Shown in pieces: positions 11,201 through 50,700 of a stretch of 64,000 nucleotides of DNA. The stretch covers positions 6,076,001-6,140,000 of the forward strand of contig OZ210885.1 in assembly GCA_964658305.1 (NCBI GenBank), read 5' to 3'. How positions within the stretch are numbered: the stretch's first letter is position 1; each line of letters opens with the position of its first letter. The DNA comes from Leptogorgia sarmentosa (taxonomy: Eukaryota). The notes under the pieces were generated by a model, which made no database searches, had not been told where the DNA came from, and worked only from the letters and a program-made list of their open reading frames with translations. The position numbers and the translations under genes were made by a program.

Positions 11201-11810
11201 TTGTCCTCCAAGTATATTTGTGTCAAATGTTCATCCTGTTTAATCATTGGTGGCTCCTTTGGCCATCAATGTCTCGAAAGACGTGAATTCAGCTTACTTG
11301 ATTGTGACAGAACGGATTTGTCAGTATTCCCCGAGTTTGCTACTGTGCAACGATGGGTAAAGGACATCGACGTATCACACAACAACATCACCGCCATCAA
11401 CATATCCGTGATTCTGAAAACATTTCCGAACCTGGTAGCGATCAATCTCCGTTATAACCCTATAACATGCATCACTGGTCCACCCCCGATAATAATAGAC
11501 AGCGACTGTCCCTTTTCATCAACAGTTTCTTTTACAACACACCAGAAATCAATACCCAAAACCACTAGTTCCTCGACTACTTCAACCTCCATCCCCACAA
11601 CAGTCCCCATTGGTAGTAATAAATCAACTTGTTTGGTGTTCATTATCGTCCCTGTGTGAGTCATTTGTGTCCTGTTTGTTTATCGCGCAAAACGCCGCCC
11701 AGCTCGTCCACCCAACTCATTCGCATTGGTAAACCTCAACGGATCCTCCGAGACTTTCGGCTCATTCTCATCCAGCGATAGTGAAAACACTTCGTATACT
11801 CGCAATTTAT
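11201..11810 (+). pseudogene. LRR / Thr-rich stalk / transmembrane protein (copy 1)
   Basis: LDC..VKDIDVSHNNI..FPNLVAINLRYNPITC, Thr/Ser/Pro stalk, hydrophobic LVFIIVPV*VICVLFVY followed by RAKRR; the stop is TGC in the copy near 31775. Confidence 0.7.
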
Positions 11811-11853
11811 AACTTTTTTTTATATAAGGTTGATACGGTTCTACATGATTTAT

Positions 11854-11975
11854 CAACATTGTATTGGGGGTAAGAGGGGGAAAAGTGTTTTGGTTGGATT
11901 AATTCATTAAAAACGCATCTGATTTTGCTTTGCACACGCGGTGTCCACGATAATTTTTGCCAGGATTGTCTGAAA
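11854..11975. repeat. Bipartite repeat arm A (CAACATTGTATTGGGG ... TTTTTGCCAGGATTGT-CTGAAA)
   Basis: Near-identical direct copy at 16231-16346; imperfect inverted copy at 15479-16188. Confidence 0.85.
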
Positions 11976-12251
11976 TTATCGCATATGATTAACGGATCGA
12001 TTTTGTGAATTTCATGGCTCGTAGTAAGGATAAAATGATTAAAATCGGTTCTCTGTTTATCAAAGGATGCAGTTAATCAGTTTAATGTAGCTTTTTACTA
12101 TTTGATGTATGGTGTCACCACTCACTTATCACATCAAAGGTGGTTTGATTGGTTTCTTATGATATTACATTTCATTCAGTTGTCTGGATTTATCGAACTT
12201 AGACGGCAACTTGTCAGGGCAATATTCTGGCATAACAAATTATTGAACAGT

Positions 12252-13631
12252 ATGGAGAACGATGATGCCTTGCAAATTATCGAAACAGTGAGAAATGTTC
12301 AGCCGAGAAATGCGAGATTTGTTTATCTCATAACTTAAAGCCAAGCGGATCTATCTTTAGTTCCTGAGCGTGGGGCATTCGTGCTATTGGTTACACATGC
12401 TTTTCAAATTGCAGATCCTTCATTAGTTTGTAACATTTTGAACTGGGTCTGCAGCATGGAGCATCATAGTGATGGCGGAATTCACTATCATATGGCTGTC
12501 AAGCTTGAATCTCGGCGACGTTGGTTGAAATTTAGAAATTACCTCGACTCTAACCATGGTATCAAGGTAAATTTCAGCGGAGTTCATGTAGATTATTATT
12601 CTGCTTGGCTTTATGCTACAAAAGACGACAAAGAATATATACAGTCTCAGGAATCATCCTGATTTAACAAATTGCGATTTCCCAGTCACAACGAATGCTG
12701 GTTTGTGCGTGCAAAATAACGCTGTAGACAATGAATCTACTCCTGTTGCAGAATCCGCAGATGGCCGCAAACGAAAATGCAAGAGGATGAGCATTTTTGA
12801 TGTGTCACAGCTCGCAGTTTCCAAAATACGAACCTGGCTCGAACTTGTTGCCCTGGCGAATGAGCAAAAGAGAGAAGGAAAAAGCGATTTGGCCCAGTTC
12901 ATTGCAAATCGAGGATCAGAAGCAGTAGAGGAAGCTTTAACCGTTGCCTGGGAGTTGGAAGAGGCGAAGAAAAGGCTGGAAAGGCCCAAACTTACCTGAA
13001 TCGAGGTTCTGGGCAAAAAGTTGGAAGAGGAATGTGTGGATGGGTGGGTGCCTAGGTAAATGGTTAGTGATGGCCATTGACATCCTGAACAGAAACGGTA
13101 TCGATGTTACGGTATTTGCGGAGGCAGTACGCATATTGTTAGAGAAAGGTCGTGGAAAATACCACAACATTTATCTCAAGGGCCCAACAAATTGCGGTAA
13201 GACATTTCTGCTAGACCCACTTAACGTAATTTACAACACATTCAGCAATCTGCAATCCTGCTACCACTACTTTTGCCTGGGTTGGAGCTGAAGCTGCACA
13301 CGTCATTTTCCTGAATGATTTCAGATGGTCCAAGCAAATTATACCATGGCATGATCTTTTACTCATGCTAGAGAGTCAGTTAGTTCATTTACCAGCCCCT
13401 AAAAGTCATTATAGCAAGGACGCGACTCTGTCCAGTGATGTGCCACTATTTTGTACAGCGAAAGAAGAAATCAGTTTCGTGCAAGGAGGTGTTTTGGATG
13501 CTAGGGAGACGGAGATGATGAGAGTCCGGTGGAATGCTTTCAGTCTTCACTGGGAAATTCCTAGGGAAGAGCAAGTAGAGGTTGCGCCATGCCCCAGATG
13601 CTTCGCTGAACTAATTTTGCAGGCGCAATAG
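12252..13631 (+). pseudogene. rep: Rolling-circle Rep (HUH endonuclease + SF3 helicase), CRESS/parvovirus NS1-like, frameshifted
   Basis: Motif I VYLIT*SQAD, motif II HYHM, motif III YATK, Walker A GPTNCGKT, Walker B VIFLNDF, C-terminal MMRVRW. Confidence 0.85.
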
Positions 13632-14028
13632 GACGAATTTGGAACAAATAAACTTTGCTAGTACATAACCAATTTCTACTTAAATATTATAGGCTAGCGA
13701 GATTGTATTGTCTACATTTTTATCCAAAGCACTCGCTGTTGTCAAATCTTATTACAAATATGTGTATAAAATGGTTGCGGCTCTGTGCCATTGTCTGTGC
13801 GAAATAAATACAACGAGAATACAACGTGAGGGAAGTTGACGTCACACGGTACACACTTGTGCATCAAGGAGTGAAAGAATACACAGCTTAAATATTTTCA
13901 TTGCTACGGTACACAGCTGTGTACCGTTTTAAATTACTGAACTTACAAAATAAGATTACTCGAACACTTGAACAGTTTTATTAGATTATGTTAAATTTAA
14001 CGATTAGACGGCAGTTAAAAGCAGCGGA

Positions 14029-15175
14029 CTATAGTGGAGTAAAATCGATTATAATATAATTACAGTATTTGGTATTTGGATCTGATTCCTTTTTGCTTAG
14101 TATAGCGTTGATGCGATTAGGCATACTTTCAAGTGTCCGATCAACAAGTTCAACACTTAAGTTATCTAAACACCAACATACTCGGTCATGAAAGTTCTGA
14201 AAAGATTCTTTGGTCAATCGCGTATTTATGGCTTCTTGTTCTAGCTGTTTCTTTACTATGTGAAAAATATTTTCAATTGGGTTTAAATCTGGAGACCTTG
14301 CAGGTATTTTATGCCATGTGCATTCAATACTATCGAGAGCTGATAACGCTACTCTGCTATTTTGGCAGGGGCAATTGTCCATCACAAATTTTGCGTTGCC
14401 TACTCCTCTTTGGACCAGCTTTGGCAAGGCATAGATTTAGGTTCCCTTTCACAAAGCGAGCACAAAAAAGGGACCGTCCATTTTTTCATATGCCTTTCTT
14501 AAAATTACTCCTTTACCATACGCAACAGCGACCATGAGATGCAAGCATCTACCTCCGGGCAACTCTTTACTCCCTTTACTTGTTATCTTTAGTCCTTCCC
14601 CTCGCTTTCTCCAGACACGTGATTTCGGTTGCAAGGCAGTTTTAAGTGGGTTGTATTTGTGAACGAATGAAACGCCGTCCAGATAGAACAAGATGTCATG
14701 CGTGTAGAACTTAGGAAAGTCTTTAAGTAATTTCTCAGCACTACGTGCATACTTTGTTCGAATTTTCTTGTCAGACTCACTTAATAATCCTTTCTTTCTT
14801 GCTTGTAAATGTTGGTAGCCAGCACGGTTAAGATACAAGGAAATCGTTCTTCGCTTTGCAATGCTCTCATCCAGGCCACTTTCATGTATAACAATGTATA
14901 ACATCTTTCACCGAAAAGTTTACGGTGGTCTTTCGTAGCGTCTTCACAGTACGCAGTAATACTCTTTCATCTCTTTTGTTGAGACGTTTCGGTCGTCCAA
15001 CTTTTCGATTGGAATTCTTGCTCACCATCTTTCCATGCATATTTGTGTTGCATATTTTATGAACAACTGACTTAGACACTCCACATCGCGTAGCAATTTT
15101 TCTATAACGCAGGTCAGTTTCATTTTTGTAGAAACGAATAAGGGCACTTGTTTCAGGACTAAGCTTACTCACCAT
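14029..15175 (-). pseudogene. Tc1-family DD34E transposase, frameshifted
   Basis: HTH + GRPKRL; FYLDGVSF; second D (MDNCPCQNS) to E (SPDLNPIE) spacing counted as 34 residues. Confidence 0.9.
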
Positions 15176-15478
15176 CTTTTTCGGTAATTAACTGATAATT
15201 GCTGTTTAAATAAATGTTGCGTCTATGACGAATGTAATTAATAAATTATCCAGCTGTAAATCATTTAAAACTAAAATAATAATATAAGACTTTTAATGCA
15301 AAATGGTCGCCCATATCTCGACGAGAAAACCGCTCACCCCCAAAATAATAAATGCTTTATAAAAACAGTTTAACCGGTTCAAATCATATATCTGTCATAC
15401 TTAAGTGATCACAATGTTCAAAATTTATAGTAGAAAGCTTGGTTTACTTGTAAATTGTCGATAATTTTTAAAGGTCAT

Positions 15479-16346
15479 TTTCAGACAATCGTGGCAAAAT
15501 TATGTTGACACCCAGCATTTCTACACCAAATAGTAATGTACAGGGTGTCTCAAAAAAAAGGTAATCGAACTTTGGCATGCCATTGTGCGTTAATTACTGG
15601 GTGTACGAACGTGATTTTTGCATGGTCATAAAGTTTAGGTCTTAGCAGTTGAATGACATATTTCTTGTAAGATATGGAAGAAAATCAGGCAAATGCGAGC
15701 GTGTTGAAAAATCTCGGTGAAAAACGCATTCTTTTACCTCTGAGAATTGCAGCTAAACTTATTCAAAATTAACTCCCTCTGGGACTCGAAGATGACGACC
15801 TTCCCTTCAACAATCGACCTGATTATGCATAATTATTAATAATCCTGATAAAATCTTTGTTACCATGACACATTCGTGATGAATTGCATTTTTCTTTTGT
15901 TATGCACTGCTTTAATTAGGCACAGAGGTGAAAGAATGCGTTTTTCACAGAGATTTTTCAACACGCTCGCATTTGCCTGATTTTCTTCCATATCGTACAA
16001 GAAACATGTCATTCAACTGCTAAGACCTTGATCTTTATGACCATGCAAAAATCACGTTCGTACACCCAGTAATTAACGAACAATGGCATGCCAAAGTTCG
16101 ACTACCTTTTTTTTGAGACACCCTGTATAGCGTTTTCCCATCATATTTTGTGCGCCACTCTCCCCCCATTCTCCCCTATACAATGTTGTTATTTGCAACT
16201 ATACTTTATAAGCATGTCTATATGATTTATCAACATTGTATTGGGGGTAAGAGGGGGGAAAGTGTTTTGGTTGGATTAATTCATTAAAAACGCATCTGAT
16301 TTTGCTTTGCACACGCGGTGTTCACGATAATTTTTGCCAGGATTGT
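15479..16346. repeat. Repeat arms B (inverted) and C (direct), possibly an ACAATC...GATTGT MITE flanked by AG
   Basis: tcAG|ACAATCGTGGCAAAATTATG..CCCCTATACAATGTTG then CAACATTGTATTGGGG..TTTTTGCCAGGATTGT|AG. Confidence 0.7.
15541..16125. mobile_element. Tc1/mariner-type MITE, CAGGGTGT ends, ~200-bp TIRs, TA TSD
   Basis: TA|CAGGGTGTCTCAAAAAAAAGGTAATCGAAC ... GTTCGACTACCTTTTTTTTGAGACACCCTG|TA. Confidence 0.92.
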
Positions 16347-16879
16347 AGCGCCGTACCTTCAGCAATAGCTCAAAATACAAGTTTGCTCGCAGTTTTACTT
16401 AATCAAATCATACTGCAAACATTGAAAGACTTGAACGTGCCAGAATTTCCAAGAGAACCTCTTGTGTTTTTCGATCCTTACAATGGCTGGATAAAAAAGT
16501 ATGAAAACAAAAAGTATGATTTTATTAACTTCCTGGAGGATGAAACCGGTGTAAATTTGATACATTATCGTACAGCGTTAGCGTATTTGGGTAAATATAA
16601 ATCCACATCACATGAAAACGTTAACAGTTTGCCTAACTCGTCAACATGACAAAAAGGTTAAACGATCGAGCAAACTCTCGATAACGTTCACAAGCTCCAA
16701 AGTTATTATTAAAAAGGCAGCCGGGTGTAAAAGAATCAAGAAAAAACTTTTCATACTGAACAAGCAACAGCAGTGATGACTATCGACATACTTTTTCGGA
16801 GTAAAGGCACGCTAGTACTCAAAGTGAACATGACAGCCTCCAACGAAGAACAAAACGCACTTGATCGTGACATGAGTAC

Positions 16880-21929: not shown

Positions 21930-23665
21930 AATGAATGAATTAAGTTCCAAATATACTGGCAAAACAAATAGAGTGTCAGAATTAAATTTTAATAATCAAG
22001 AAATAATGGCACCTATGGATATTGCTGAAGCTTTTATTGACTATTTTTTTAGTGTTGGTGACGACCTGGCTGCATCTATACCAACCCTTGACCATGATCC
22101 GAGCTTTTATCTTAAAGCAATGGATAAGACATTTTCATTGCAATCTCCTACCTTTGAAACTGTTTTATAAACTTTTAAGTTAAATTGACGAGAAAAAATC
22201 TGTTGGGTTGGATGATATACCCAACAAATTACTGAAAATGGCTGCACAGGTGGTTGCACCTTCATTGACGGGAATATTTTCTGCATCAATACGTACAGGA
22301 ATATTCCCAAGTGAATGGAAGGCAAGCAGGGTGACACCAATATTCAAAAGTGGTCCTAAGAGTAATCCAAACAATTACCGACCAATTTCCATTATTCCTG
22401 CTATTGCAAAAATTTTTGAGAAAATTATTTCTGACCAATTACATGAATACCTAAACACTAATGAGATTTTAACTTCCTGCAAATCTGGTTTTAGATCTAT
22501 ACACAGTACGGTAACTGCAATGCTTGAAGCCACAAGTGACTGGTCCATGAATATTGACAATGGTTTAATCAATGGAGTAGTTTTTATTGATTTAAAAAAA
22601 GCATTTGACACTATTGATCACCAAATTATGTTACAAAAGCTAAGAAACTATAGTATTGATCAAATGAGTCTAACTTGGTTTGAATCTTATCTTACCAATC
22701 GAACTCAAAAGTGCAGTATTAACGACCAATTGTCAAATTCTGCCCCGGTGACTTGTGGTGTTCCCTAAGGTAGTAACCTGGAGCCCATACTTTTTCTGAT
22801 CTATATAAATGACCTTCCAAATTGCTTGAATCATGCTATACCTAGAATTTTTGCTGATGACACAAGTATAAGTTATTCGGCAAACACAACAGATGAGCTC
22901 CAAAATGTAATAAACTCTGAGTTAAAAAAGCTTAGTAGCTGGCCTATTACTAATAGATTAAGTCTAAATATTGTTAAAACGGAATTTATGGTAATAGGAT
23001 CTCAGCAAAAATTAAGTCCATAGATAGCGAAATAAACATTAGAATCAACGAAAATGAAATCACTAGGGTTGAATCGGTGAAATCCTTGGGAGTTTATATT
23101 GATAAACATCTTACTTGGCATGATCATATTTATAAACTATGTAAGAAAGTTGCATCTGCTATTGGTGCACTAAAGCGTGTTAGATCGTTTATACTATAGA
23201 CACATCCATACAAATATACCAAGCGATCATTCAGCCTTATTTCGACTATTGCTGCACAGTATGGGATGGCCTTGGGGAAACACTCGGTACTAAATTGCAA
23301 AACCGAGCAGCAAGAGTCATCATGAGATCAAGTTATGATACCGACGCAAGTGTATTATTAGATAATCTGCGTTGGGATCATTTGTCTTTAAGATGACAAA
23401 AGCTTAAACTTGGTTTTATGTTTAAAACACTTAAGAGTAATGCTCCCAGTTATTTACAATAATTCTTTTCCATTCGCGGAACTGGGTATAACCTAAGAAA
23501 TTCTGAAATGAAGCTGAATCTGCCTAAGCCATGAACAAATTACTTAAAACGAAGCTTTTGTTATAGTGGAGCACTATTGTGGAACAACCTTCTGCAAGAA
23601 ATAAGAAAGCTTCAAACACAGGCTAAATTTCAAAAAGCTGTTAATAAGTATTTTGATGAATAACT
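21930..23665 (+). mobile_element. 5'-truncated CR1/L2-clade LINE reverse transcriptase, degraded
   Basis: NYRPISIIP, FIDLKKAFDTIDH, GVP*GS, IYINDLP, FADDT, C-terminal KRSFCYSGALLWNNL. Confidence 0.92.
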
Positions 23666-25111: not shown

Positions 25112-25290
25112 CGTGAGATAAATAAACCGCATTTTACAAAAGTACAGTTTTATATACATTAATGACGAAGTAACGGAAAAATAAATGTCACGTGTCACAC
25201 ACACACTTCAGTTTCAATGAACTTAAAACATCTTTTGAATTCTTTTCTGTATATACACATTTACAAATCGTACGAACACTAACCGAAATC

Positions 25291-26092
25291 ATGGTTGCGT
25301 TACTTTTACTTGTTTTATTACATGGCTTCTTGGTCTGTGGAAAGCAGCAAGGGTGTAAATTGGTACGATTTGTGGGCGTACTAGATTGCGTCAATGTGGG
25401 TCTTCAAAATGTACTCATAATACAAAAAGATCGCGATGCCGTAAAGGTTTTGGACTTGGGGCAAAATAATATCACAAAATTGGATAGCAAGATCATGGCA
25501 GCATACCCAAACTTAAAGTTAATCGACGTGCGTGAAAATCCACGTATTTGCGGTGGCGTATTCCTAAGCGTAACAGTGAAGAGTGATTGCAAAATGAACA
25601 AAAGTTACCTCCCCTCATCGAATACCCCATCGCCATCTACCATCTTAACACGCACAATTCAAACCACTCTTCGACCATCGCCCACCAAGCCTTTCAACCC
25701 GACAGTACCATCGCCCCCAAAGACATCCGCAAACCCTAGTACGCATATTCCTCCCAATCCTTACACCCTAACAGAGTCAGAATACTCCGCAACCCTCTAA
25801 ATTCAGGTCAAGTTCTTTCTCCCTCCCCTCACCCTCATCATTCGTAAAACCCAAAAACCCTGTAACGGAGCATCGACGTGGCGATTATCCACAACTTGCG
25901 GTGTATCTGTCATCAGTAATTGCAACGTTGTTCTTCATAATTTTCTGCGTGAAATGTAAGCTGTGCATGCGTTGTCGCCGTCGAACCCATGAAAATGAGA
26001 ACGTGGTGATGGCGACAGTAAACTCTGTGAGGAACATTAGTGAAAGCTCCTCAGGTTCAAGTAACGAAATCTATAATGTTACAAGCGTGTAA
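25291..26092 (+). pseudogene. LRR / Pro-Thr stalk / TM protein (diverged copy 2)
   Basis: Signal-like MVALLLLVLLHGFLVCG; VLDLGQNNI, PNLKLIDVRENP; P/T stalk; TM VIATLFFIIFCV followed by RCRRR; stop at 25798. Confidence 0.7.
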
Positions 26093-27507: not shown

Positions 27508-28062
27508 TCAGTTTCGTTTAACGTAAACAATCTGTCTTTCGTTAGGTAAAATATTTGTTCGTAATCTTAAGTCCTCCGGCATTAATTGATGAAGATCCAA
27601 TAGAAGATAGCCATAGGGTCTTTTTGTAGCATCGTTAAATGATTCTAGCAAATAACCGACATTGTTGGGATACATTTGACGTGCCAATGTCGTAATACCA
27701 AGTGAATCTCGAGGGTTTCGGAATATCAGCATGTAGTGAGAATTTAAGCTGATTGTCCTCGAAAGCTTACCAGGAGGAAATAGGTTTTGAGTAAGGAATA
27801 AAACAGATATTCCACGATGATCCACTGTAAAAAGGTCAGCTACGCGTTGATCATTAGAGCACTGCGACATTAGGTCGTCCAAAATCACCAGCGAATTGTC
27901 ATGCGCCTCTGTCATGTCATACAAGTTGTTTGGAAATCCCTGAACGAACTGTATGTTCGGTAAAGCCTCCGATAATTCGTCAAATTCTTTTTGAAACTCT
28001 CCAAAGCAATATATTACTTTAGAAGGTACAGAAAAAAACAGTTCCTCCAGGTTTCGTAACAT
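27508..28062 (-). pseudogene. Polinton/adintovirus A32/FtsK-like packaging ATPase lacking its Walker A N-terminus
   Basis: LVILDDLM (Walker B), HRGISVLFLTQNLF, RTISLNSHY, FRNPRD, PYGYLLLD, RLRTNI. Confidence 0.85.
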
Positions 28063-28360
28063 TGAGCGTTAAATAACAAGGGTTAAATAAGCCATAGCTC
28101 GACCAAAATTAACTACATTGATCTCGTAAAAAACTGTCGCGATATCTGGAGAACATGCAAGTATTGACCGATACATAGATTCGTGCTCGTCAAGTAAATA
28201 GTTTATATAATACGATAACATTCTCATATCAATGTCCACGTTATTTTTTTGAAGTTCATCCAACATTACCTCCATTCTACACTCAAACATAGACAAAAAT
28301 GAATGCATAAAAGTAAAAACGTGTTTATTTAAAATATGAAATACATAAGCAATAAGCCGA

Positions 28361-28900
28361 CTACTTAATGTTCATGGCTTGAAAACTTTGTGCTACATTA
28401 TCAACACAGTCATTATAATAGTTCCGTTTCTCTCTGCTCATCTTACAATGTTGCTCGGACATGGAAAAGTTGACCGGCTGTAGCGACCCGCATCCATCCT
28501 CGGGTACCCATTCGAAATATCGACACGAGTTCTCCTTCCCGTTTGGAAAGGTGAAGAACATACGACCCTTGTTGACGCCCTTTTTCTTAACCTTGAGAGT
28601 TGCACATGGAAACCCATGGTTACAGCTCGGCCGCATCACTGGTTGTACATCGCCCCACACCCAAAAGGAACACGGATTCCTCTTATCGGAACACACGAAA
28701 TACGGTCTTCCATAGCTCTCTTTCATCAGATCTTTAACCATGTGCATCTTTGCAAGTTTACCGTGTCCACCACACATCGGCTGTGGTTGATTCGTGGATC
28801 TCCAGGCATCAATCGCTTTTTCAAACATATATCCCTCGTCTTCCGAGCAGAAGAAATGACATGCTCTCAAGCAGGCTCTCCGTGCAAACACTTCATCGTT
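28361..28900 (-). pseudogene. GRF zinc-finger protein (copy 2)
   Basis: FEKAIDAW..CGGHGKLAKM..YGRPYFVC..CSFWVW..NKGRMFF..CRYFEW. Confidence 0.75.
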
Positions 28901-29003
28901 CAGGACAAATGTAACTAATATTTTCAAAAACCATGCACACTTATATACTTTTTTTTTCTCACTTATATGTCACTTCCGATCACGTGTTCATAAATCCAGC
29001 TAA

Positions 29004-29914: not shown

Positions 29915-31035
29915 TTAGGTATCTATATATTTGATTAAAAACCTCTCTCTCAAGACTTTGCTTATTACCGGCAGAATGGATATTGGTCGATAATTTTCAC
30001 ATTTACTTCTATTTTCGGATTTATAAATAGGGATTACTCTAGCCAATTTCCATTCATCTATATATATGCCAGATTTCAGAGACATGTCAAAAAAGGCTGT
30101 AAGTGATGGTGCAATTATGTACGATGACATTTTTAGAATTTTGGCAGGTATATTATCCATTTCAGTTGCCTTAGAAACTTTTAAATCACTTAAACTTGTG
30201 GCAACATTGTTTACATTAATATCGGCAAATTTAAAACATATGTCAGGGTAGCGTTCGATGTTTGCTTCAGGCATTTGGTCGTCACTCGAAATGTTATATA
30301 ATTGTTCTGATTCAGTTGCAATGTTGATTCCAACATTTATGAAATAATCATTGAAGGATTCAGCAATAGATTTATCGTCCGAAATGATATCATCATCGAT
30401 AATAAGCTGTTTAACGCTGGTTTGTTTTCCCTTTCGGCCTAATAAAGTATTTATCAGGGACCAACTTTTTTTAACATCTTTAGAGGAGTCCTGAATTTTT
30501 TCGCAGAAATATTTTGATTTTGCCTGCCGCATCTGTATATTCACTTTATTTCGTTCAGATTTGTATAATTCCCATTGGGCATGTGAATCATGTTTAACTG
30601 CCTGTTTTTTATGGAAGTCTCTCTTTCTCATAAGCTGTTTGATATTAGGAGTAATCCACGGAACAGGATTATCCTTTAACCTCTTACTTCGAAGAGGGGC
30701 ATGTCTGTCAAGAGCTTCGAGAAAGAGCGATTTCCACAATTGCCAGCAAATATTCGGATTCTCAGATTGAGTTACAATATGCCAGGGAAGCAGTGATATG
30801 TCTTGAATAAAATCGATTTCAACGAAATTTTTGAAATTGCGGACTTCCCTGGCAATTTTTCTAGACTTCGGTAGAATAAATTTTCTTACAAAGTAGACCA
30901 AACTGTGGTCAGATATTCCAAGGTGAATAACACCGGATTCTGAAATATATTCCGGTCTATTTGTCAAGATCAGATCAATTAAAGTTGCTGATGTTGGTGT
31001 TACTCTCGTTGGCTCAGTTATTAGTTGCCGGAGGC
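29915..31035 (-). mobile_element. CR1/L2 LINE fragment (end of endonuclease to start of RT)
   Basis: QLITEPTRVT..TLIDLILTN..ISDHSLV..PWIT..EWKLARVIPIYK..NYRPISILP. Confidence 0.9.
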
Positions 31036-31079
31036 GGTCCTTCCGTGGATATGGAGATGGTCGCATGGGAGCACGCTGC

Positions 31080-31210
31080 ATCTTTCGACTTATTTTAAAC
31101 TTTCCTTCTTCTTTAACATCTTGATACAGCCGCTCTACTCCACCAAGTCCTCCCGCACATTTCGAATCGTAATAAACACTCGATAAGTACTCATGTCCAT
31201 GATGACACAT
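31080..31210 (-). pseudogene. N-terminus of Polinton retroviral-like integrase
   Basis: YLSSVYYDSKCAGGLGGVERLY resembles the YY.P....FGG...LY start of Polinton integrases. Confidence 0.6.
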
Positions 31211-31245
31211 AAAATGAAAAGTATGTTAAGCAATGTTACCCTTTT

Positions 31246-31410
31246 TATTCATCATTGGGTTCAACAGGTTGTGGTTCAACAGGTGTAATTTTCGCATAGT
31301 TTTTAATGGTTTTACTGTTATAGCCCATTTGTAAATGTCCCTCTAAATTAAGATCATTTCGACCAACGCTTAAACCAATTTTAAACATTTTCAGTTTATT
31401 ATGGTTTTCC
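31246..31410 (-). pseudogene. MGxxxSK-family protein (copy 3, 5'-truncated)
   Basis: NHNKLKMFKIGLSVGRNDLNLEGHLQMGYNSKTIKNY..VEPQP. Confidence 0.65.
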
Positions 31411-31935
31411 AGTATTCCCCCAGTTTGTTACAGCACAAGGATGGGTAACGGGCATCGACGCGTCACGCAATAACATCGCCGCCATCAACATACAAGCGAT
31501 TCTGGAATCATTTCCGAACGTGACAGCAATTAACCTCCATTATAACCCCATTACATGCATCACTGGACCACCCCTGATAATCATAGGTAGCGACTGTCCT
31601 CTCTGATCAACGGTTCCCTCCACATCTCAGATATATAATGTCACTACATATTCTACAATCCAACCCTCTATACCCAAAACCACTACTTCCCCGACTACTT
31701 CAACCATCATCCCCACAACAGTCCCCATTGGCAGCAATACATCAACTTCTTTGTTATTCATCATCGTCCCTGTGTGCCTCGTTTGTGTCCTGTGTGTTTA
31801 TCGCGCACTGAAACGCCGCCCAGCTCGTCCATCCAACTGGTCCACCCAACTCGTTCCAACTGGTAAACCTCCACGGATCCACCGAAACTTTCAATTCATT
31901 TTCATCCGACGATAGTGAAAACATTTGGTACACTC
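31410..31935 (+). pseudogene. LRR-stalk-TM gene (copy 3, 5'-truncated)
   Basis: Close nucleotide similarity to 11321-11790. Confidence 0.75.
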
Positions 31936-32886: not shown

Positions 32887-33362
32887 CCCATTACATGCAT
32901 CACTGGACCACCCCTGATAATCATAGGTAGCGACTGTCCTCTCTGATCAACGGTTCCCTCCACATCTCAGATATATAATGTCACTACATATTCTACAATC
33001 CAACCCTCTATACCCAAAACCACTACTTCCCCGACTACTTCAACCATCATCGTTTGTGTCCTGTGTGTTTATCGCGCACTGAAACGCCGCCCAGCTCGTC
33101 CATCCAACTGGTCCACCCAACTCGTTCCAACTGGTAAACCTCCACGGATCCACCGAAACTTTCAATTCATTTTCATCCGACGATAGTGAAAACATTTGGT
33201 ACACTCATGACTTAACATTTTTACTTGTTGTATTTCGGGTCGAGTCGCTAGGTCTATGGTAGGGTTTACTTGTTGTAATTCGAGGTCGAGTCGCTAGGTC
33301 TATGGTTGAAACTAAAGTCTTGAGTGATAACGAGGATTGAGGGGTGATTAGAAACTTAGAAA
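32887..33362 (+). repeat. Near-identical duplicate of 31547-32092 with a ~70-bp deletion
   Basis: Direct sequence comparison. Confidence 0.9.
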
Positions 33363-34874
33363 TTACAGCATGGGGGTGGTCACAATCTTTGATGGGGATT
33401 AAGATTGTTATGTAAATTTACTGAACGTAAATTAGGAAACCACAAAGACAGCTCCGTGCCATTTACACGCATGATGTTGTTCCTTTCAAAAATGATAACA
33501 CGAACCCAATATAATTTTGTAGATGGATAAATGCGGTTGATGCTCGTAACGCTTTGTCGCTACAATCCATGAGACCAAAAAATTTTAGCTCTCAACATGA
33601 CATAGCACACGCAAGAACAAAAAGAAGTGTGGTCACAGCGAAAAGAAACATTGTCAAAGTTTTCATACTACAATCTAACTAAGAAAGGTTAAGTTCCTTG
33701 TTTTATACAAGTGATATTTAATAGTTTAATTTTCTGTCAAACCAAAACATATGTTGAGCTATGCATATAAGTATGAGAAAATTCATTTGTTTGTGTTTAT
33801 TAACAAAAACAAAATTCTACCACTATGCATAATTATGAGAAAATTCATTTGTTTGTGTGTATTAACAAAAACAAAATTCTACCGCACGTCAATATTTATT
33901 ATTTTTGCAAAATAATTTGTAAATAACATGTTAAAAACTCTGTGTGCATGCTGTGTAATCATTTCAATTGAACATTTGTGGTGTAAACATGGAATGGGAA
34001 GACATTGTTAAAGATTGGTTATCAAAAAATCAAGGGACTCTTGCATTACAGAGTTAATAGATAATTTAGTGAAAGCTAGCGCCATAGACCAATTGCGAAA
34101 CTTAGTGACCGCACCTCCGCAAATCACGAAAGGGAGGCTTATTATGCAAACAACAATAAATCTATTGTTCACTTTGTCTCAAAGTTTCGTAGCGTTTCAT
34201 TGAGTCTCTCGCAGTTTTCTCTGGTTTCCGCAGTTTTCTAGATACTTTTTTAGCTTTTTTCAATCAATTATCTTAGTTAGTAGAATAGGTTAGTCTTGTT
34301 TTCAATTTGCGGTATCAGCAATTGTTTTGGCGGCGTGTGCCAGTGAAAATATCATGGAGAAAGTCCACACAAAGTCGGGTGAGTCAACTTTTTTTGCAAA
34401 TAAATTTTTATGAATCTTTTCCACCATTGTCTGGACATTACATCATTATTTTGAAACAATTTGTGAATTTTTTCCGCGATAATTACATAATTTCCGGTGT
34501 AAATATTTACGTTTTTTGCTACTCAAAAATGAAGGTCAACGGTCAAACATCGCCGCCATTGTGCATACTTTTAAAATGGCATAATTTTTGTACTTTATCC
34601 AGCAGAAATGACAATATTTTATAACTCAACAACACGACAATGAGTCGAAGTTTTAGTTTGTACCTAGGAGATGAAATATCTTGTAGATTTTGTGTTTAAT
34701 TTTCGTTGTTGTACTTGTACTGACGTCCGATGACGACGCCAGCGCAAAGAAAATTTTATATCTTCATGGTTGACTTGCACTTGTCAACCACCTAGTCATA
34801 CTCGTAAATTTATCTATCACTTGTTTAATTTTTATCTTGTATTTTTTCACAGTGTATTTTGTTTGTCTTTTTCT

Positions 34875-38505: not shown

Positions 38506-41203
38506 CAGGGTGTATAAAAAAAAAGTATACTCGCAAAAAATGTCTTTTAGGCCGAAGCGCACGCACCCCATTGCAAACCATTGGTATATCTAAGTAGTTT
38601 GAGCCCTTCGGATACATCCTACACTAAAAGTTTGCACAAAACGACCATTTTATGACTACGAAAAGTGTTATAAAAAGCCATAGTAAAAATGGTTTGCGCG
38701 AAAAAATGTGAGGCGGAAAATGCAATTTGATTTGACAGCCTAAATCTATGGAACAAGTTTCATTAGTTATTCAAGTTTGAGAGCATTTCGTGCACACAAA
38801 CGCAAACGCGCGACGTTTGAAATTTCGGAATTTTAGCCTTTCAATTTCCGAACCTGATTTTGTGGTGACTTGTAGCTCATTAATGCGTTGCAAACAATTT
38901 GCATAAATTAAATTTTACAAACTGACAGGGTGTTGGAATTCCCAAATGACATCGAAGATGATAGTCGAGGTTACAAACCAGTGTTATTCTTCAAAATTTC
39001 CGCTATTTTGTTCTAAACGAAGCCCAACTCTGTTCATGATAACATGCAAGTAAGGCAAAACAAAGTAAACATGTATATGCGCGCATGGTGACGGTTTCGT
39101 AAAATAGGTATTCGAATACTTGCGTTATTCCCAGGTGGTTAGAACATGAGTGTGGCTGCATGCATTGCGATTAACCTTCTCATTCATTGTAATCATGGCT
39201 ATGCCACAGTTCACACCTCAGCAAAGATCATTTTTAGTGAGAGAATACCACCAAAATAACAATGAGGTTAGGAGAGTTCTCCAAAGGTTCCGTGAAGTTT
39301 ACCCTGGTGTTCGATGCCCGTCGCGAGCTACAGTTCATAAAAATGTAAGAAAGTACAGCATGCATGGCACAAGTTTCAATTTGAATAAGGGCAGGTCTGG
39401 TCGTCGGAGGACAGCAAGATGTCCGGAAAATATCGCGCCAGTAACACACGTGCTGGCTAATCAAGAAGCAGGTGAACAAAGGATAAGCGCCCGTCGTAGT
39501 GGTCTTGGTTTATCCTCAGCGACATTCAATCGCATTACCCGACTGGATTTGCAGCTGTTGATCCAAATGATCAAACGTCATCAGCTGTTCGATGGAGATT
39601 ACCAGCGACGGGTGAACTTCTGTCAGTGGCTGCTTTGTCAAAATCAACGTTTTCTTGAAAATGTAATTGTCGGCGACGAGGCAGGATTTGCCCTAAATGC
39701 TAGCGTAAACACCCATAACGTATTGTCCACATGGTGAACCGCCTTTAAACTTCGATTACCAACAAAACGATGATTGCCACAAGCTAACAGTATGGGTTGG
39801 TTTAATGGGTAACGGCAGCATCATTGGTCCCTTCTTTTTTCGCAATAATTTGGACGGCGAGGGCTACCTTCAGATGATAAACGAGCAAGTGCATCCCAGG
39901 TTAGGCAGAATGCATCGTTTTGGACCAAACAGGAATGGCCAATTCGGACGTCTTTGGTGGATACAAGACGGTGCAGCACCTCATAGGAGACGTATCGTTA
40001 CTGAGCGCTTGCAACAGCTGTTTGGTGAGCAAGTTGTAGCGTTAAATCACCAAATCGAATGGCCACCAAGATCCCCAGATTTAACACCATTAGATTGTTT
40101 TCTTTGGGGTTATTTGAAGTCGAAGGTTTACTTAACGCCACCTGCAAACCTAGACGAAATGAGAATCCGCCGTGAGATGGACGCCCTTAAGCGAAACAGA
40201 GGGATGGTTCGACGTGCTGTCAACGCCATGTTAACCAGAGCTGAGCTCTGCGTAGAAAGAAACGGGGGTCATGTAGAGGACTAACACTATCTGAATGTTC
40301 AATGATTAAAAAATGTAAATAGGTCAACATAAAGCTTTCTTGAAATAAAGTATAAATAAACGTTAATGTGAATAACTCAAGGTTGAACATGAGAAAATAC
40401 AAGTAGTTAAATCAAACGCAATTGCAGTATCATTAAAGTCATAAAACAACCAGAGAATACTGCAAGTAAAGCCTACATTTTATGAGACCGTGCATGCATA
40501 CACACATCCCGTTCCTCACTTGCATGTTATGAGCAGAGCTGGGCTCTGTTTAGAACAAGATAGGTGCCCTGTTGAAGAATAGCACTTTTTTCGAACTGAA
40601 GCCGAGTTTCAATAAGTCCTTAGCGGTCGCTCGTGGTTTCCGAGTGAACTCGTAGTGACCAAAAATAACAGTGTCGTTGAAATAGACTTTGTTCTTATCC
40701 CAGCGACATTTCTGTTTCTCCCTTACGGTCGCAAAACCTTTGCTCAAAAACAACGACCGAAAGCTAGAGATCTGTCTGTCAACACCCTGTCAGTTTGTAA
40801 AATTTAATTTATGCAAATTGTTTGCAACGCATTAATGAGCTACAAGTCACCACAAAATCAGGTTCGGAAATTGAAACGCTGAAATTTCGAAATTTCAAAC
40901 GTTGCGCATTTGCATGCACCAAATGCTCTCAAACTTGAATAACTTATGAAACTTGTTCCATAGATTTAGGCTGTCAAAACAAATTGCATTTTCCGCCTCA
41001 CATTGTTTCGCGCAAGCCATTTTTACTACAGCTTTTTATAACACTTTTCGTAGTCGTAAAATGGTCGTTTTCTGCAAACTTTTAGTGTAGGATGTATCCG
41101 AAGGGCTCAAACTACTTAGATATACCAATGGTTTGCAATGGGGTGCGTGCGCTTCGGCCTAAAAGACATTTTTCGCGAGTATACTTTTTTTTTATACACC
41201 CTG
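38506..41203 (+). mobile_element. Full-length DD41D (rosa/Visitor-type) Tc1/mariner element, ~430-bp TIRs, frameshifted transposase (about 39195-40284)
   Basis: TA|CAGGGTGTAT ... ATACACCCTG|TA; VGDEAGF, IQDGAAPH, WPPRSPDLTPLD with 41 residues between the 2nd and 3rd D. Confidence 0.92.
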
Positions 41204-47753: not shown

Positions 47754-50700
47754 ATGGCAGATAGGCGTCTTCAATGTCTGCTCCAGGCGAACAAGAGAGG
47801 CTTTTCCCTATCCTTCGATCCATCAGGGGATCAAAACAGATGCTTCTATCAGTGTATTGCAAAGAATATGAATACTGGAGAAGAAAACGTCGTGGACATG
47901 ATCCAGTCCTACATGACAGCGAACCAATTTGTCACTACAAAAAGCGAGGTACTGCACACTTATTTATTTATATTTCTTTATTTATGTATTATTTATTTAT
48001 GTATGTAGTCTTAATATTCATTTATTCATTTATTCATTTATTCATTTATTCATTTATTCATTTATTCATTTATTCATTTATTCATTTATTCATTTATTCA
48101 TTTATTCATTTATTCATTTATTCATTTATTCATTTATTCATTTATTCATTTATTCATTTATTCATTTATTCATTTATTCATTTATTCATTTATTCAGGAT
48201 GGAGTAGTTAAAAGACAAGACTTGTGGGCATTTCTTTCCGATATCGACTTTCCGACCCTTGGATATAGGCCTTGTTCATGGGATGAATCGGTTAAAGCGC
48301 TTAAGAATGAAATGGCTAATCATGTTGTGATACAGTGTGCTGCATCACTCTTTTGCCTGAACATTAACATTATTGACTGGCAAGGGGTAAGCTATTTATT
48401 GCTTTTCAGCCAAGCTGCATGGCCAATTATCTTGTTACATGTATGTGTAACATATGTGTATATGAGTCACACATTACATTATGAACACATCTTGTATCAG
48501 TTGACAAATTGTAGAAATGCCTTCACAAAATTATGCATACATGTAGCAATAAATTAAGAATAAGTGGCATACATATGCATACAAACTCAGAAATATGTAC
48601 TAGTATTGAGATCCACATCAAAATACCTTGGTATACTCATTTGAATGGTGAATAAGACAAAAATGTGGGTTAATCCCTTTATCACTCTGAGTTGTTAAAT
48701 CATCTGGTGTTAGACAGAGTAGCTATAGAATAGTTATATGTAGAGGCAGATTTGGGCTGCTTGACAACTAGGGTTTGGGCTAATTATGACCACTTTAAAT
48801 TCTCTTACAGAGAATGACTGTGACAAATCCATTTCTTTGGCAAGGAATGCACAATGTTTATCTTGCATATACAGGGTCTCATTATATGCTATTAACACCA
48901 CAATTATGTGGTGTGGCCAAAGATAGAAAAGAACATGTTACAGGCCCAGGTAATTTTAACTGACAAGTGTAATTTCTAATTCATATACAGTACATACAGT
49001 AGTTAAATGTAATTACCCTGTTTTATATTTTTAGGGATAAAGGTTGAGAAACACAAAGGAGCTAAACAATTTCAGCAAAGTGGCCCTGAACAGTTTAATC
49101 CTGGCATAAGTGTGTTTAAAGGCCGCCCATTAAAGGTAGGAATGTATAGTTACCTAATTTCTATAGGCAAAGATTAACCTCAGTGTATGCATTGCTCATA
49201 GATGTATTGGCTTAAAACTGAGGATTACTGTAGATTCAATATACCAATTTTATGCCAAATTGAACCAGCTGTCAATGCCAACACTTTAAAGGAACAAGGA
49301 TAAACCAACAGCAAAAAGCTTTAGCATGATAGATAAATAAAATAAAATAAAATAATCATCTTGCATTATCTGATATTTCCACATTAGATATTTAGTTCTC
49401 TTGTGTTCCTATATGCAAACAATATTATAGTATATTTTGACATTTCATAGCTTCATGATTGTCAGGATCCAGTGATTGTCATTTCTGATGACGACAGTGA
49501 TGTCAAAACAGCTGTTGTTGACATATCTAGCACAGTAAGTTGGATTAAATTGTGTATATATGGACAATTGTGAAGTAGTATACACTTATTAATAACATTG
49601 CATGGCCTTCCATTAATTAATGTTTATATCCGTTTTATAAAATAAAATAAAAATACATGGTTAAATAATTTTTCATTTTTTGTCATGGATTATTAAGTGA
49701 TAAGTGTTGCATTATATAAAGGCTGTACAGTGTTTACAGTATTTAGCTTTTAGATATAATAGCCTTAACTTACTGTATTTTTTACTATACAAAGGGTTCT
49801 CAGTCTGATGAAGAAATAATATCGACTAAGAGTTCTGACAGTGACATAATTGTTGGAAAGAAGAGATCAAGAAAACGAAAAAGATGCAGAACTACCAATG
49901 TAAGTGAAATGCTTAATGCATTCCATCTTGGTTTCTTGGTAATTGTGGAGCAAAATTAAGTAAAGTATTTACTGTATGTACATTTTCCCCCATTTAATGT
50001 ATCCACTGTTAGTTGAATATTACACTATATCATCTGAGTTTACTACCTTTGATATACAGTACGTATGTGCAATTTGGTAACCCTGTGGCCCTCATAGTTT
50101 CCTTGTCCAATAATTTTTGCTTTAACATAGGATGATAGTTCTATGGAACGGCTTATTACGGTGTTGAGTGGCATGAGTTCTAATGACACCACCCCAGTTA
50201 AGGATGTGAAACCTGAACGATGCAGTGGCCCATGCACAAAAAAGTTGTTTGCAGGAGATGAGTAAGTCTACAGGGTGTATCAAAAAAAGGAGACCTTTAG
50301 AAATCGGTCTTATTGTTGTGATTTGAATGGTTGAGCGCGACCGAGGCACAGAAGCGTCAAATATTGACAGGATGTATTGTTTGGTGTACATGCAAATTTC
50401 TTGCCAAGCGCTGTGTGGCAAGCATCTCAGTGTGCGTTCGATCAATGAGCATTGATTTTATTATGTTCATGTACCCATGGGATTAACATGCATATGAGCA
50501 TTCAGATCACAACAATAAGACATGATTTCTAAAGGTCTCTTTTTTTGATACACCCTGTATGGAGGTGCACTAACTTGCAACCTAGATGAGATCAACATAG
50601 ATATTATAGATACTGTCATGTGCATTCTATTGATTTTCCATCAAGCTTTCAGACCATGTACTCACTGCTCCGTTGACTATATGCATGCGTGCAGTAATAT

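Follow-up and report, generated by a model that had tools for sequence, protein, structure and literature searches.

Remains of a mobile element pairing a Rep gene with a Tc1 transposase gene in Leptogorgia sarmentosa

The window, a 64,000-nucleotide stretch of Leptogorgia sarmentosa DNA, contains the remains of a widespread kind of mobile element with two genes, confirming what the first-pass annotation had observed. A Rep gene and a Tc1 DD34E transposase gene, both now pseudogenes, converge across 397 nt from stop to stop and lie between inverted arms of about 125 nt (Table 1). The copy spans 11840–16345; its left end module, here called P, is without its left half, and its right end lies at a TA dinucleotide.

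Table 1. Features of the window copy (positions of the window)
Feature	Position	Strand	Remarks
Left end module P, right half only	11840–11968	+	Loop remnant and arm A1, closing on the gene-side tip ...GCCAGGATTG; 98% direct copy of 16217–16345
Leader, P to Rep start	11969–12251	+	Opens with a conserved TCTGA just after the gene-side tip; read directly
Rep pseudogene: HUH endonuclease, oligomerisation helices, SF3 helicase	12252–13631	+	One in-frame TAA, three frame changes
3' intergenic spacer with ACGGT/ACCGT inverted iterons	13632–14028		Iterons at 13846, 13906 and 13923; 22-nt perfect palindrome at 13906–13927
Tc1 DD34E transposase pseudogene	14029–15175	−	Three frame changes
Right end module P, complete	15486–16345		273 nt long after removal of the MITE and one TA; same module and same tips in relatives
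Nested high-copy Tc1-type MITE, unrelated, ends CAGGGTG...	15541–16125		TA at 15539–15540 and 16126–16127; 95- and 106-nt inverted ends
TA target dinucleotide, right outer junction GATTG/TA/GCGCC	16346–16347		Paralogous flank contigs alike from exactly 16346 in all four runs

All the HUH and SF3 motifs attributed to the Rep in the first-pass annotation can be read in the sequence, namely motif I (FVYLIT*SQAD), HYHMAVKL, YATKDD, Walker A (GPTNCGKT) and Walker B (IFLNDF). Measured against an intact relative (P0004), the damage consists of a TAA at 12336–12338 and frame changes near 12652–12683, 13040–13044 and 13242–13249. Across 83 Reps there is no variation in the HUH His, in Y121, in K316 of Walker A or in D353 of Walker B, nor in HYHMAVKL and Y..K, and GPANCGKT and FLNDFRW are found in the relatives. 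The structure predicted for another intact relative (P0001) has a pLDDT of 89.4, with 87–97 in the N-terminal domain (residues 21–140); a 10-sequence alignment gave a helicase core below 50, and the final model comes from an 83-row alignment. This model matches AAV2 Rep68 with an E value of 2.6e-13, its N-terminal domain aligning to full-length Rep68, and further Foldseek matches comprise Rep40, papillomavirus E1, SV40 large T and B19 NS1 (E values of 1e-7 to 1e-13). By its predicted fold, the Rep is an HUH endonuclease joined to an SF3 helicase, of the AAV Rep68 type. Judged by this modelled fold match and by its neighbours in the protein atlas, which are Parvo_NS1 clusters, it is nearer to parvovirus NS1 and AAV Rep68 than to CRESS Reps. 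By sequence, the Rep scores below the Pfam cut-offs for Parvo_NS1 (15.7–17 bits against 20) and PPV_E1_C (19.3 against 26.5), and a search of the PDB returned zero matches. A Rep profile run over the 2.9 million viral contigs of IMG/VR gave 25 pattern matches, none of which encodes a relative.

The opposing gene matches Pfam DDE_3 (E 3.7e-9) and HTH_Tnp_Tc3_2 (E 8.5e-6), which bears out its earlier identification as a convergent Tc1 transposase. DDE_3 scores above its cut-off both in the window piece (37 bits) and in the relative at locus L019 (46 bits); HTH_Tnp_Tc3_2 reaches 26–29 bits against a cut-off of 31.5, and the HTH_23 and HTH_32 matches are weak. Thirty-four residues separate the second D from the E, as counted in the window's own sequence, and the L019 protein can be laid on SB100X with no gap between DNDP and NxIE (E 5.6e-8), in an alignment read against the catalytic residues of Sleeping Beauty. 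The reading frame of the window gene shifts near 14893 and at about 14467 and 14393, and the gene product is 92% identical over 152 aa to an intact 364-aa relative (P0121).

The ends of the element differ from those first assigned to it. The two inverted arms are indeed matched: 11851–11975 agrees with the reverse complement of 15479–15538 plus 16128–16191 at 89 of 131 aligned columns, with a score of 37, whereas 300 shuffles averaged −16.5 and reached 0 at most. As termini, however, they were rejected, being the gene-side halves of two Ps; in L013, L058, L059 and the window the real boundaries are the arms' other ends. Each window arm is half of a P, and the Tc1-type tips (CAAYC...) face away from the genes. 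A third arm at 16217–16346, missed in the first-pass annotation, is a direct copy (98%) of 11840–11969, and the element, which had been ended at 16188, reaches 16345 and is truncated on the left, with Tc1-type tips at the far ends of its modules. The right P runs from tip CAATCGTGGCAAAA... through arm A2, a C-run, CAATGTTG and a 42-nt spacer to CAACATTG, a G-run, arm A3 and tip ...GCCAGGATTG. The MITE had rightly been seen as splitting an arm: it has TA on both sides and is missing from contigs of three runs (X1, X5 and X6), in which 15532/15536 connects directly with 16124/16126.

In assembled Logan contigs from runs of the window's species, further right ends of P are followed by TA and by differing flanks, and element-free paralogs of the window's right flank break at 16346. 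The sequence that precedes 16346 in these paralogs occurs once in the window, at 34055–34076, and does not adjoin 11840, which implies that the left junction was lost through rearrangement. The DNA to the left of 11801 belongs to an LRR-type gene family of the host, paralogous members of which lie at 31410–31935 and 33050–33206. The window is crowded with other transposons. Polinton-like genes had been proposed as possible helpers, a suggestion for which we see no support: the ORFs lie more than 11 kb away, the one at 27511–28068 has no Pfam match and that at 28364–28969 matches a GRF zinc finger alone.

Comparison with relatives defines the unit, 3.3–4.5 kb in size, as a body between two direct copies of the palindromic module P (75–330 nt), the body consisting of Rep (+), an iteron-bearing spacer and the Tc1 transposase (−) in that order. 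P has a Tc1-type tip, CAAYCnnGGnCAAAA, at each end and a conserved core made up of a C-run, CAATGTTG, a loop, CAACATTG and a G-run. Core palindromes number 56 against 4.8 in shuffles, and the C and G runs are found in 24 loci as well as in the window. Tip-to-tip folding of the module gives z values between −5.4 and −11.8, and in several lineages it makes a hairpin of 145–150 nt. The ACGGT iteron arrangement of the window spacer also recurs, in L001, L002, L005, L006, L016, L049, L058 and L059. Chromosomal copies take the form P-body-P, with direct Ps in the window (98%), L013, L058, L059, L065/66, L019, L020 and L049, and a TA is duplicated at their outermost tips, mostly inside C-TA-G: the left outer flank reads C-TA in 9 of 10 distinct junctions and the right outer flank TA-G in five of seven. 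These outermost tips are mutually inverted (CAAYC... and ...GRTTG). At L013, a P-body-P of 4280 nt sits in phase within a 26-nt satellite, with one TA duplicated, and at L010 another module, of 249 nt, stands in inverted copies on either side of the gene pair. The 52 tip-motif matches in relatives are flanked by TA in 15 cases, by C(A/G)G(A/C), the TCTGA/CCGA type, in 28 and by other sequences in nine. With the arms taken as termini, a TA adjoining (T/A)CAACATTG fits the window and fails in L049 and L019. Protection of internal tips for want of a TA was rejected, being contradicted by L005, L016 and L070, which carry TA at internal tips.

The linkage of the two genes was counted from 79 Rep-anchored metagenome loci, 33 of which contain a Tc1 match. 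At least 1500 nt follow the Rep in 29 loci, of which 21 have the Tc1 clade downstream of it in opposite orientation, together with the same end modules, and a Tc1 is present in 9 of 10 loci whose Rep is intact. The recurring convergent pairs are 40–90% identical, and those in which both genes are intact (L003, L005, L006, L016, L019, L020 and L025) span lineages only 40–60% identical. The colinearity of L001 with the window extends over 12411–15511 (76%), and relatives of the element lie in unrelated flanks. Rep and Tc1 distances rise together (Mantel r 0.756 for 215 pairs drawn from 23 rows that include the near-duplicates L018–20; 0 of 999 permutations as high), and maximum-likelihood trees of nine Rep/Tc1 pairs have all supported clades in common, (L019,L025) and (L005,(L006,L059)). 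The first-pass annotation had read the two genes as a candidate hybrid element and had pointed to convergent recurrence and to a comparison of the two trees as the places to look. Because of this recurrence, co-divergence and sharing of end modules across dozens of diverged loci, the comparisons support a single mobile unit rather than a chance neighbourhood.

The association has exceptions. Tc1 is absent from 8 of the 29 loci with enough flank (L036, L037, L044, L048, L052, L061, L062 and L073), in which the Reps are mostly decayed, that of L036 being intact, and it lies on the same strand as the Rep in L056, L060 and L067. The similarity of L018–20 to the window is higher for Tc1 (62%) than for Rep (51%), a hint that modules were exchanged. 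The dN/dS values for L006 against L059, a decaying copy, are near neutral (0.59 for Rep, 0.81 for Tc1). As the first-pass annotation had remarked of the window, there is no capsid gene: among nine units, no third conserved ORF of at least 70 aa was found outside Rep and Tc1. Pairing the lists of Rep and Tc1 matches by the lengths of their contigs, as a proxy for co-location, recovered just L005 and L025, which were already known.

Two contigs close on themselves, that of L003 within the Tc1 gene, where its two ends are identical over 110 nt, and that of L006, with one P per unit, through a 99-nt exact overlap inside P. They would be either circles or perfect tandems, which leave the same signature in assembled contigs. 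L018 and L019 are diverged tandems or 1.x-mers (84–91%) and fit chromosomal arrays equally well.

Taken together, we favour, with a probability of about 0.68, the reading that the window holds a dead, left-truncated copy from a family that is likely a Rep-replicated episome pasted into chromosomes by its Tc1 transposase. In the cycle that we envisage, the HUH-SF3 Rep would copy one-P circles by rolling-circle amplification and yield multimers. Cuts by the transposase at two outer tips, either of such a multimer or of a copy already integrated, would then free P-body-P for insertion at a TA. A one-P monomer by itself could donate only P, and the end modules would be built so that pasting needs a product of more than unit length. 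Circles might be shed again from an integrated copy, either when its two Ps recombine or, for an origin within P, when Rep starts at one P and ends at the other; the candidate origins are the P core and the intergenic iterons, the latter as a putative Rep-binding origin. A more ambitious formulation, which we hold tentatively and at rather less than even odds, is that of a new class of eukaryotic mobile DNA, widespread in cnidarians, in which Rep makes a rolling-circle episome, Tc1 pastes products of more than unit length into CTAG sites, the palindromic P doubles as origin, and the integrated P-body-P is a built-in partial dimer that releases circles via Rep without excision.

Rep catalytic residues are invariant in 83 sequences, Rep is kept intact beside intact Tc1 over lineages only 40–60% identical, the conserved iteron palindromes and P core are without known use for a Tc1 transposase, and the points at which contigs close are arbitrary, each unit having one P. 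These observations make it unlikely that we are dealing with an ordinary composite Tc1-type transposon, moved by cut-and-paste only, whose Rep is cargo with another role or none and whose self-closing and 1.x contigs are tandem arrays or recombination by-products. Such a transposon would need nothing beyond P-body-P and the TA duplication, and would fit the diverged tandem units of L018 and L019, an episome signature that rests on assembled contigs, and a family not found among 2.9 million viral contigs. Less probable again is a parvovirus-like linear replicon that uses the Ps as hairpin telomeres, like AAV ITRs, replicates by rolling hairpin and relies on the transposase for integration. The best fold matches, to both domains of AAV2 Rep68 and to B19 NS1, would suit it, as would the Parvo_NS1 atlas neighbours, the tip-to-tip hairpins and the unit size, yet the flip/flop hairpin orientations of Parvoviridae, which would mix orientations, were not seen at any locus with two canonical Ps, these always being direct copies, and one-P self-closing contigs are present and a capsid gene is not. 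Chance nesting of an endogenous Rep fossil beside an unrelated Tc1, in this window only, is scarcely credible: two dead genes in a window full of other transposons would suit it, against which stand the 21 of 29 testable loci with the same co-diverging pair and end modules, and the colinearity of L001.

For a Rep-replicated episome pasted by a Tc1 enzyme, the pairing would be of wider consequence. Cut-and-paste transposons alone do not raise copy number, and small Rep replicons alone do not enter chromosomes in an orderly way; a family that keeps both enzymes together over deep divergence would naturally connect DNA transposons with replicons of the plasmid or virus kind. The window copy itself is a fossil, and its interest lies in the family that it exposes, which accounts for many proteins left unannotated as 'hypothetical' in the genomes of cnidarians and in metagenomes of coral type, with 234 matches to Rep and 150 to Tc1, and supplies intact natural gene pairs for testing.

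Among known systems, the Tc1 DD34E transposons, such as Sleeping Beauty (PDB 5cr4), share with the element the DDE_3 domain and the 34 residues from second D to E. Their paired N-terminal helix-turn-helix may have a counterpart here, where HTH_Tnp_Tc3_2 scores 26–29 bits, below its cut-off of 31.5. The TA target duplication, ends that start with CA and inverted tips bounding the transposase-bearing unit are also common to both. So too are conserved outer and inner boxes in each arm, which we presume to be akin to IR/DR ends. Unlike those transposons, the element has its transposase gene outside the nearest tip pair, is bounded by two direct palindromic modules instead of one simple inverted-repeat pair, and always carries a second enzyme, the Rep. 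With AAV Rep68/78 and parvovirus NS1 it shares, on the predicted structure, an HUH nuclease, oligomerisation helices and an SF3 helicase in one chain, and with their replicons a genome of about 4 kb and terminal palindromes of the 145-nt class. It differs from them in sequence similarity that stays under Pfam cut-offs, in having no capsid gene, in end palindromes that are direct copies, in the existence of circular or tandem forms, and in integration junctions of Tc1 type (TA) rather than Rep type.

In the literature searched we found no description of a Rep-plus-Tc1 element, nor of this two-enzyme way of life, and the nearest precedent is the geminivirus-like transposon of the truffle Tuber melanosporum. 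There, a Rep-like ORF likewise lies with transposase ORFs between terminal inverted repeats, and an origin from an ssDNA virus has been proposed (Liu et al. 2011, PMC3198968). That transposon differs in its fungal host, its geminivirus-type Rep and its 37-bp TIRs, for which no target duplication was seen; it is one young family known from a consensus, and end modules, circles and cross-lineage conservation go unmentioned in the parts of that account available to us (PMC3198968). The Rep-Tc1 family would add a case to the debate on module exchange between ssDNA-virus Reps and transposons. A Rep-class HUH endonuclease and a proposed circular intermediate also recall the Helitrons and Replitrons. 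In these eukaryotic transposons the HUH protein is itself the transposase, with no DDE enzyme, TIRs or TA duplication; the Helitron helicase is SF1 (Pif1-like) in a RepHel fusion, and Replitrons are without a helicase. The element described here, in contrast to Helitrons, has a helicase of SF3 fold together with TIR tips, TA duplication and a DDE enzyme. A last parallel is found in bacterial composite transposons and IS-mediated replicon fusion (Tn10/Tn5, cointegrates from plasmid dimers), in which a segment lies between two copies of a small element and is mobilised in one piece by the outermost ends, and plasmids come to lie in the chromosome between direct copies. The element is likewise a segment between two copies of a small element with ends of its own, but its host is eukaryotic, its bounding module is noncoding, and both the transposase and the replication initiator are carried inside the segment.

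Comparison across loci shows the convergent Rep and Tc1 transposase genes of this element to be paired as a family trait and not by accident. A 133-aa piece of the Rep retrieved 234 proteins of about 440–490 aa in a protein search, with named matches from the cnidarians Actinostola, Exaiptasia and Paramuricea. A profile built from ten Rep proteins fetched 79 metagenome loci (L numbers below); a Rep profile search of 2.9 million viral contigs fetched nothing. When Tc1 was sought in the 79 loci, with the pieces of the window's transposase and then with profiles, it was matched in 33, including 9 of the 10 with an intact Rep, and it lies downstream on the opposite strand in 21 of the 29 loci having at least 1500 nt after Rep. 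The eight of these 29 in which Tc1 was not found (L036, L037, L044, L048, L052, L061, L062 and L073) mostly carry truncated or decayed Reps, the exception being L036, whose Rep is intact. A minus-strand Tc1 upstream of a plus-strand Rep (L023, L027, L030, L038 and L033/34/47) is the arrangement expected from tandem or circular permutation, and in L056, L060 and L067 both genes share a strand. These three same-strand loci, like the Tc1-less L036, sit awkwardly with the model.

Between loci, identity in Rep tracks identity in Tc1 (r 0.756, 215 pairs, a set including the near-duplicates L018–20; none of 999 label permutations reached this value), and in maximum-likelihood trees built from nine intact, non-redundant pairs, with L018 and L020 excluded, every supported clade is common to both genes. 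A discordant case is L018–20, which match the window at 62% in Tc1 and at just 51% in Rep. The dN/dS values for L006 vs L059, 0.59 (Rep) and 0.81 (Tc1), are near neutral and fit the model less neatly; L059 is decaying, and pairs further apart are saturated. What the first-pass annotation observed is confirmed, and its reading holds in part: the hybrid unit it proposed is borne out by convergent co-occurrence, with directly repeated ends at several loci, by the correlation and by the comparison of trees that it had suggested; the contrary case it had named, adjacency only here, does not hold, as the pair recurs in the loci of relatives.

The matched inverted arms described earlier are real (11851–11975 against the reverse complement of 15479–15538 plus 16128–16191; 89 of 131 columns identical, far above 300 shuffles), although their ends had been wrongly assigned, the tips lying at the far ends of a palindromic module, P. 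Because another left arm recurs 23–42 nt after the right arm in the window, L001, L019 and L059, the arms make up the two halves of P, whose core reads C-run, CAATGTTG, loop, CAACATTG, G-run. Such cores number 56, compared with 4.8 in shuffles, with the C and G runs also present in 24 loci and the window. A Tc1-like tip, CAAYCnnGGnCAAAA, stands at both far ends, and P is predicted to fold tip to tip as one extended hairpin, with z between −5.4 and −11.8. Among 52 tip-motif matches, 15 are TA-flanked, 28 have a conserved C(A/G)G(A/C) leading into the body (the genes between two Ps) and 9 are other, five of these being chance hits in other sequence.

Larger contigs show the unit as P-body-P, its two Ps being direct repeats. 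In the window (GATTG/TA) and L059 (GGTTG/TG) the repeat stops at the same homologous base; the left boundary of L059 is the mirror image, TA/CAACC. The clearest insertion is L013: there, a P-body-P of 4280 nt is set exactly in register into a 26-nt satellite, and one TA is duplicated. The left outer flank is C-TA in 9 of 10 distinct junctions and the right TA-G in 5 of 7, which therefore indicates a CTAG-like target. L010 is at odds with the P-body-P rule: its Rep-Tc1 pair lies between inverted copies, 97–100% identical, of another module of 249 nt (L010:228–476 and L010:4576–4789), which has 32-nt perfect terminal repeats; next to the body, each copy is bordered by the same nine letters, CACGGGATA.

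Other contigs close on themselves. The two ends of L003 overlap exactly for 110 nt inside the Tc1 gene, and those of L006 for 99 nt inside P, the latter giving a 3722-nt unit with one P; exact overlaps at such arbitrary places indicate either a circle or a perfect tandem. In L016 and L005 the contig is one unit whose break falls in the P core. L018 and L019 contain more than one unit, and since their repeated parts are 84–91% identical, they are true tandems or 1.x-mers.

Coordinates and repeats of the element, its relatives and neighbouring features (window positions unless a locus is named)
Feature	Position or locus	Strand	Detail
Rep	12252-13631	+	ORF map and sequence
Tc1 transposase	15175-14029	-	ORF map and sequence, Pfam
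Third arm	16217-16346		98% direct copy of 11840-11969; 36 nt past right arm
Nested Tc1-type MITE	15541-16125		TA both sides; 95+106-nt inverted ends, ends CAGGGTGTCTC...; inside right end module
Direct P repeat	window		130 nt, 98%
Direct P repeat	L013		188 nt, 91%
Direct P repeat	L058		142 nt, 92%
Direct P repeat	L059		148 nt, 89%
Direct P repeat	L065/66		110 nt, 93%
Direct P repeat	L019, L020, L049		also P-body-P
26-nt satellite	L013:3476-3990, L013:8276-8860		GTCACACAGACGCGAAAACTAAACTT-like; insertion target
Iteron arrays	L006:2063-2192, L016:1776-1934, L002:3163-3564, L021:2499-2677		~10 nt, TTTACAACGG and relatives, inverted; between Rep and Tc1 3' ends
LRR-plus-transmembrane type paralogs	11322-11801, 31410-31935, 33050-33206		77-83%; one abuts element's left side
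'Polinton-like' ORFs	27511-28969	-	GRF zinc finger in one (Pfam E 1.8e-15); VILDDLM motif, no Pfam match in other
LINE-type reverse-transcriptase ORFs	22184-22768, 29915-31225		around 'Polinton-like' ORFs
Mariner-like ORFs	39150-40284	+	two, adjoining
24-nt tandem repeat	47900-48200		one frame reads FIHLFIYS repeatedly
826-aa open frame	50756-53236	+	cysteine-rich stretches; no Pfam match at E 0.001

The right end of the window copy had been set at 16188, a third arm having been missed; read from sequence, the element spans 11840–16345 and is followed by TA at 16346–16347. Contigs resembling its right flank turn alike exactly at 16346 in four runs of the species, where further P right ends are followed by TA and then at least three different flanks. 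The right P (15486–16345) is complete save for the MITE, whose earlier recognition was correct, MITE-free joins bridging its site in the contigs of three runs. The summed contig depth of this MITE is hundreds of times that of neighbouring sequence in the species' runs, and its ends are breakpoints in many contigs. The left P has lost its outer half and the expected left target half is not present at that side; left of 11801 lies host LRR-type gene family sequence. ORF 25174–25800 resembles the LRR-plus-transmembrane pieces by eye. The right flank (16346–16650) is itself repeated, coding-like sequence, with paralogs reading ...AATTTAGTGAAAGC/TAGCGCC; one left half of a paralog lies at 34055–34076 (region 34055–34080) and continues differently.

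Both genes lie where the first-pass annotation had placed them, the transposase pieces matching DDE_3 (E 3.7e-9) and HTH_Tnp_Tc3_2 (E 8.5e-6) in Pfam, and the Rep motifs FVYLIT*SQAD, HYHMAVKL, YATKDD, GPTNCGKT and IFLNDF are readable. Read against the intact relative proteins P0004 and P0121, Rep carries TAA within motif I (12336–12338) and frame changes near 12652–12683, 13040–13044 and 13242–13249, and the transposase is out of frame from near 14893 and again at about 14467 and 14393. Judged by these frames, both genes are dead and the window copy a fossil; the family behind it is of high interest. Over window positions 12411–15511, L001 is colinear at 76%. Contigs of X1 and X6, two Logan sets from the species, hold an internally deleted derivative (13042 joined to 15305; ~90% like the window) without the helicase half of Rep and the entire Tc1 gene. 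The suggestion that Polinton-like genes act as helper is without support, the ORFs concerned lying 11 kb from the element. The mariner-like ORFs, assigned by eye (WIQDGAPPH...PPRSPDLTPLD), have a frame change between them, and the second piece has no Pfam match at E 0.001.

The Rep model (pLDDT 89.4, 83-row alignment) matched full-length AAV2 Rep68 first in Foldseek (E 2.6e-13), then SV40 large T, papillomavirus E1, Rep40 and B19 NS1; by sequence, the family scores below Pfam cut-offs and matched no PDB chain. The proposed HUH plus SF3 class is supported by this fold, and the choice left between CRESS viruses and parvoviruses narrows to NS1-like. In the protein atlas the family falls in a cnidarian Rep cluster adjoining Parvo_NS1 clusters, and the HUH histidines, Y121, K316 and D353 are invariant over the 83 rows. 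The transposase aligns to the Sleeping Beauty structure SB100X (E 5.6e-8), gap-free from the second D to E. No conserved third ORF was found among nine units, in agreement with the earlier remark that no capsid gene is visible. Inverted ACGGT/ACCGT iterons lie in the 3′ intergenic spacer of the window copy and of most relatives, and in L006 they are predicted to form a strong hairpin (z −7.3). L021 also has a 74-nt inverted pair within the Rep region, which may be a separate insertion.

The unit, with its end modules, integrates as P-body-P with TA duplication and also occurs as self-closing one-P contigs. The likeliest mechanism is that Rep replicates one-P circles. Since nothing but P itself lies between the tips of a lone P, a monomer circle could donate P alone; the body would be mobile only when flanked by two Ps, in a multimer or an integrated copy, with the transposase acting at the outermost tips of the two-P form. 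If the origin is the P core, an integrated P-body-P would allow Rep to begin at one P and end at the second; if it is the iteron palindrome, circles would arise via recombination between Ps. In bacteria, composite transposons and plasmids integrating from dimers follow the same outermost-ends logic, and in geminivirus partial dimers Rep starts at one origin copy and stops at the other.

No description of a Rep-plus-Tc1 element was found in full-text literature searches. The nearest precedent is the 'geminivirus-like transposon' of Tuber melanosporum (Liu et al. 2011, PMC3198968), which is described with transposase ORFs beside a Rep ORF, TIRs of 37 bp and no TSD seen. A transposon with a virus-type Rep is a known kind, to which we liken the present element; on a bolder reading, the family would be a distinct two-enzyme class.
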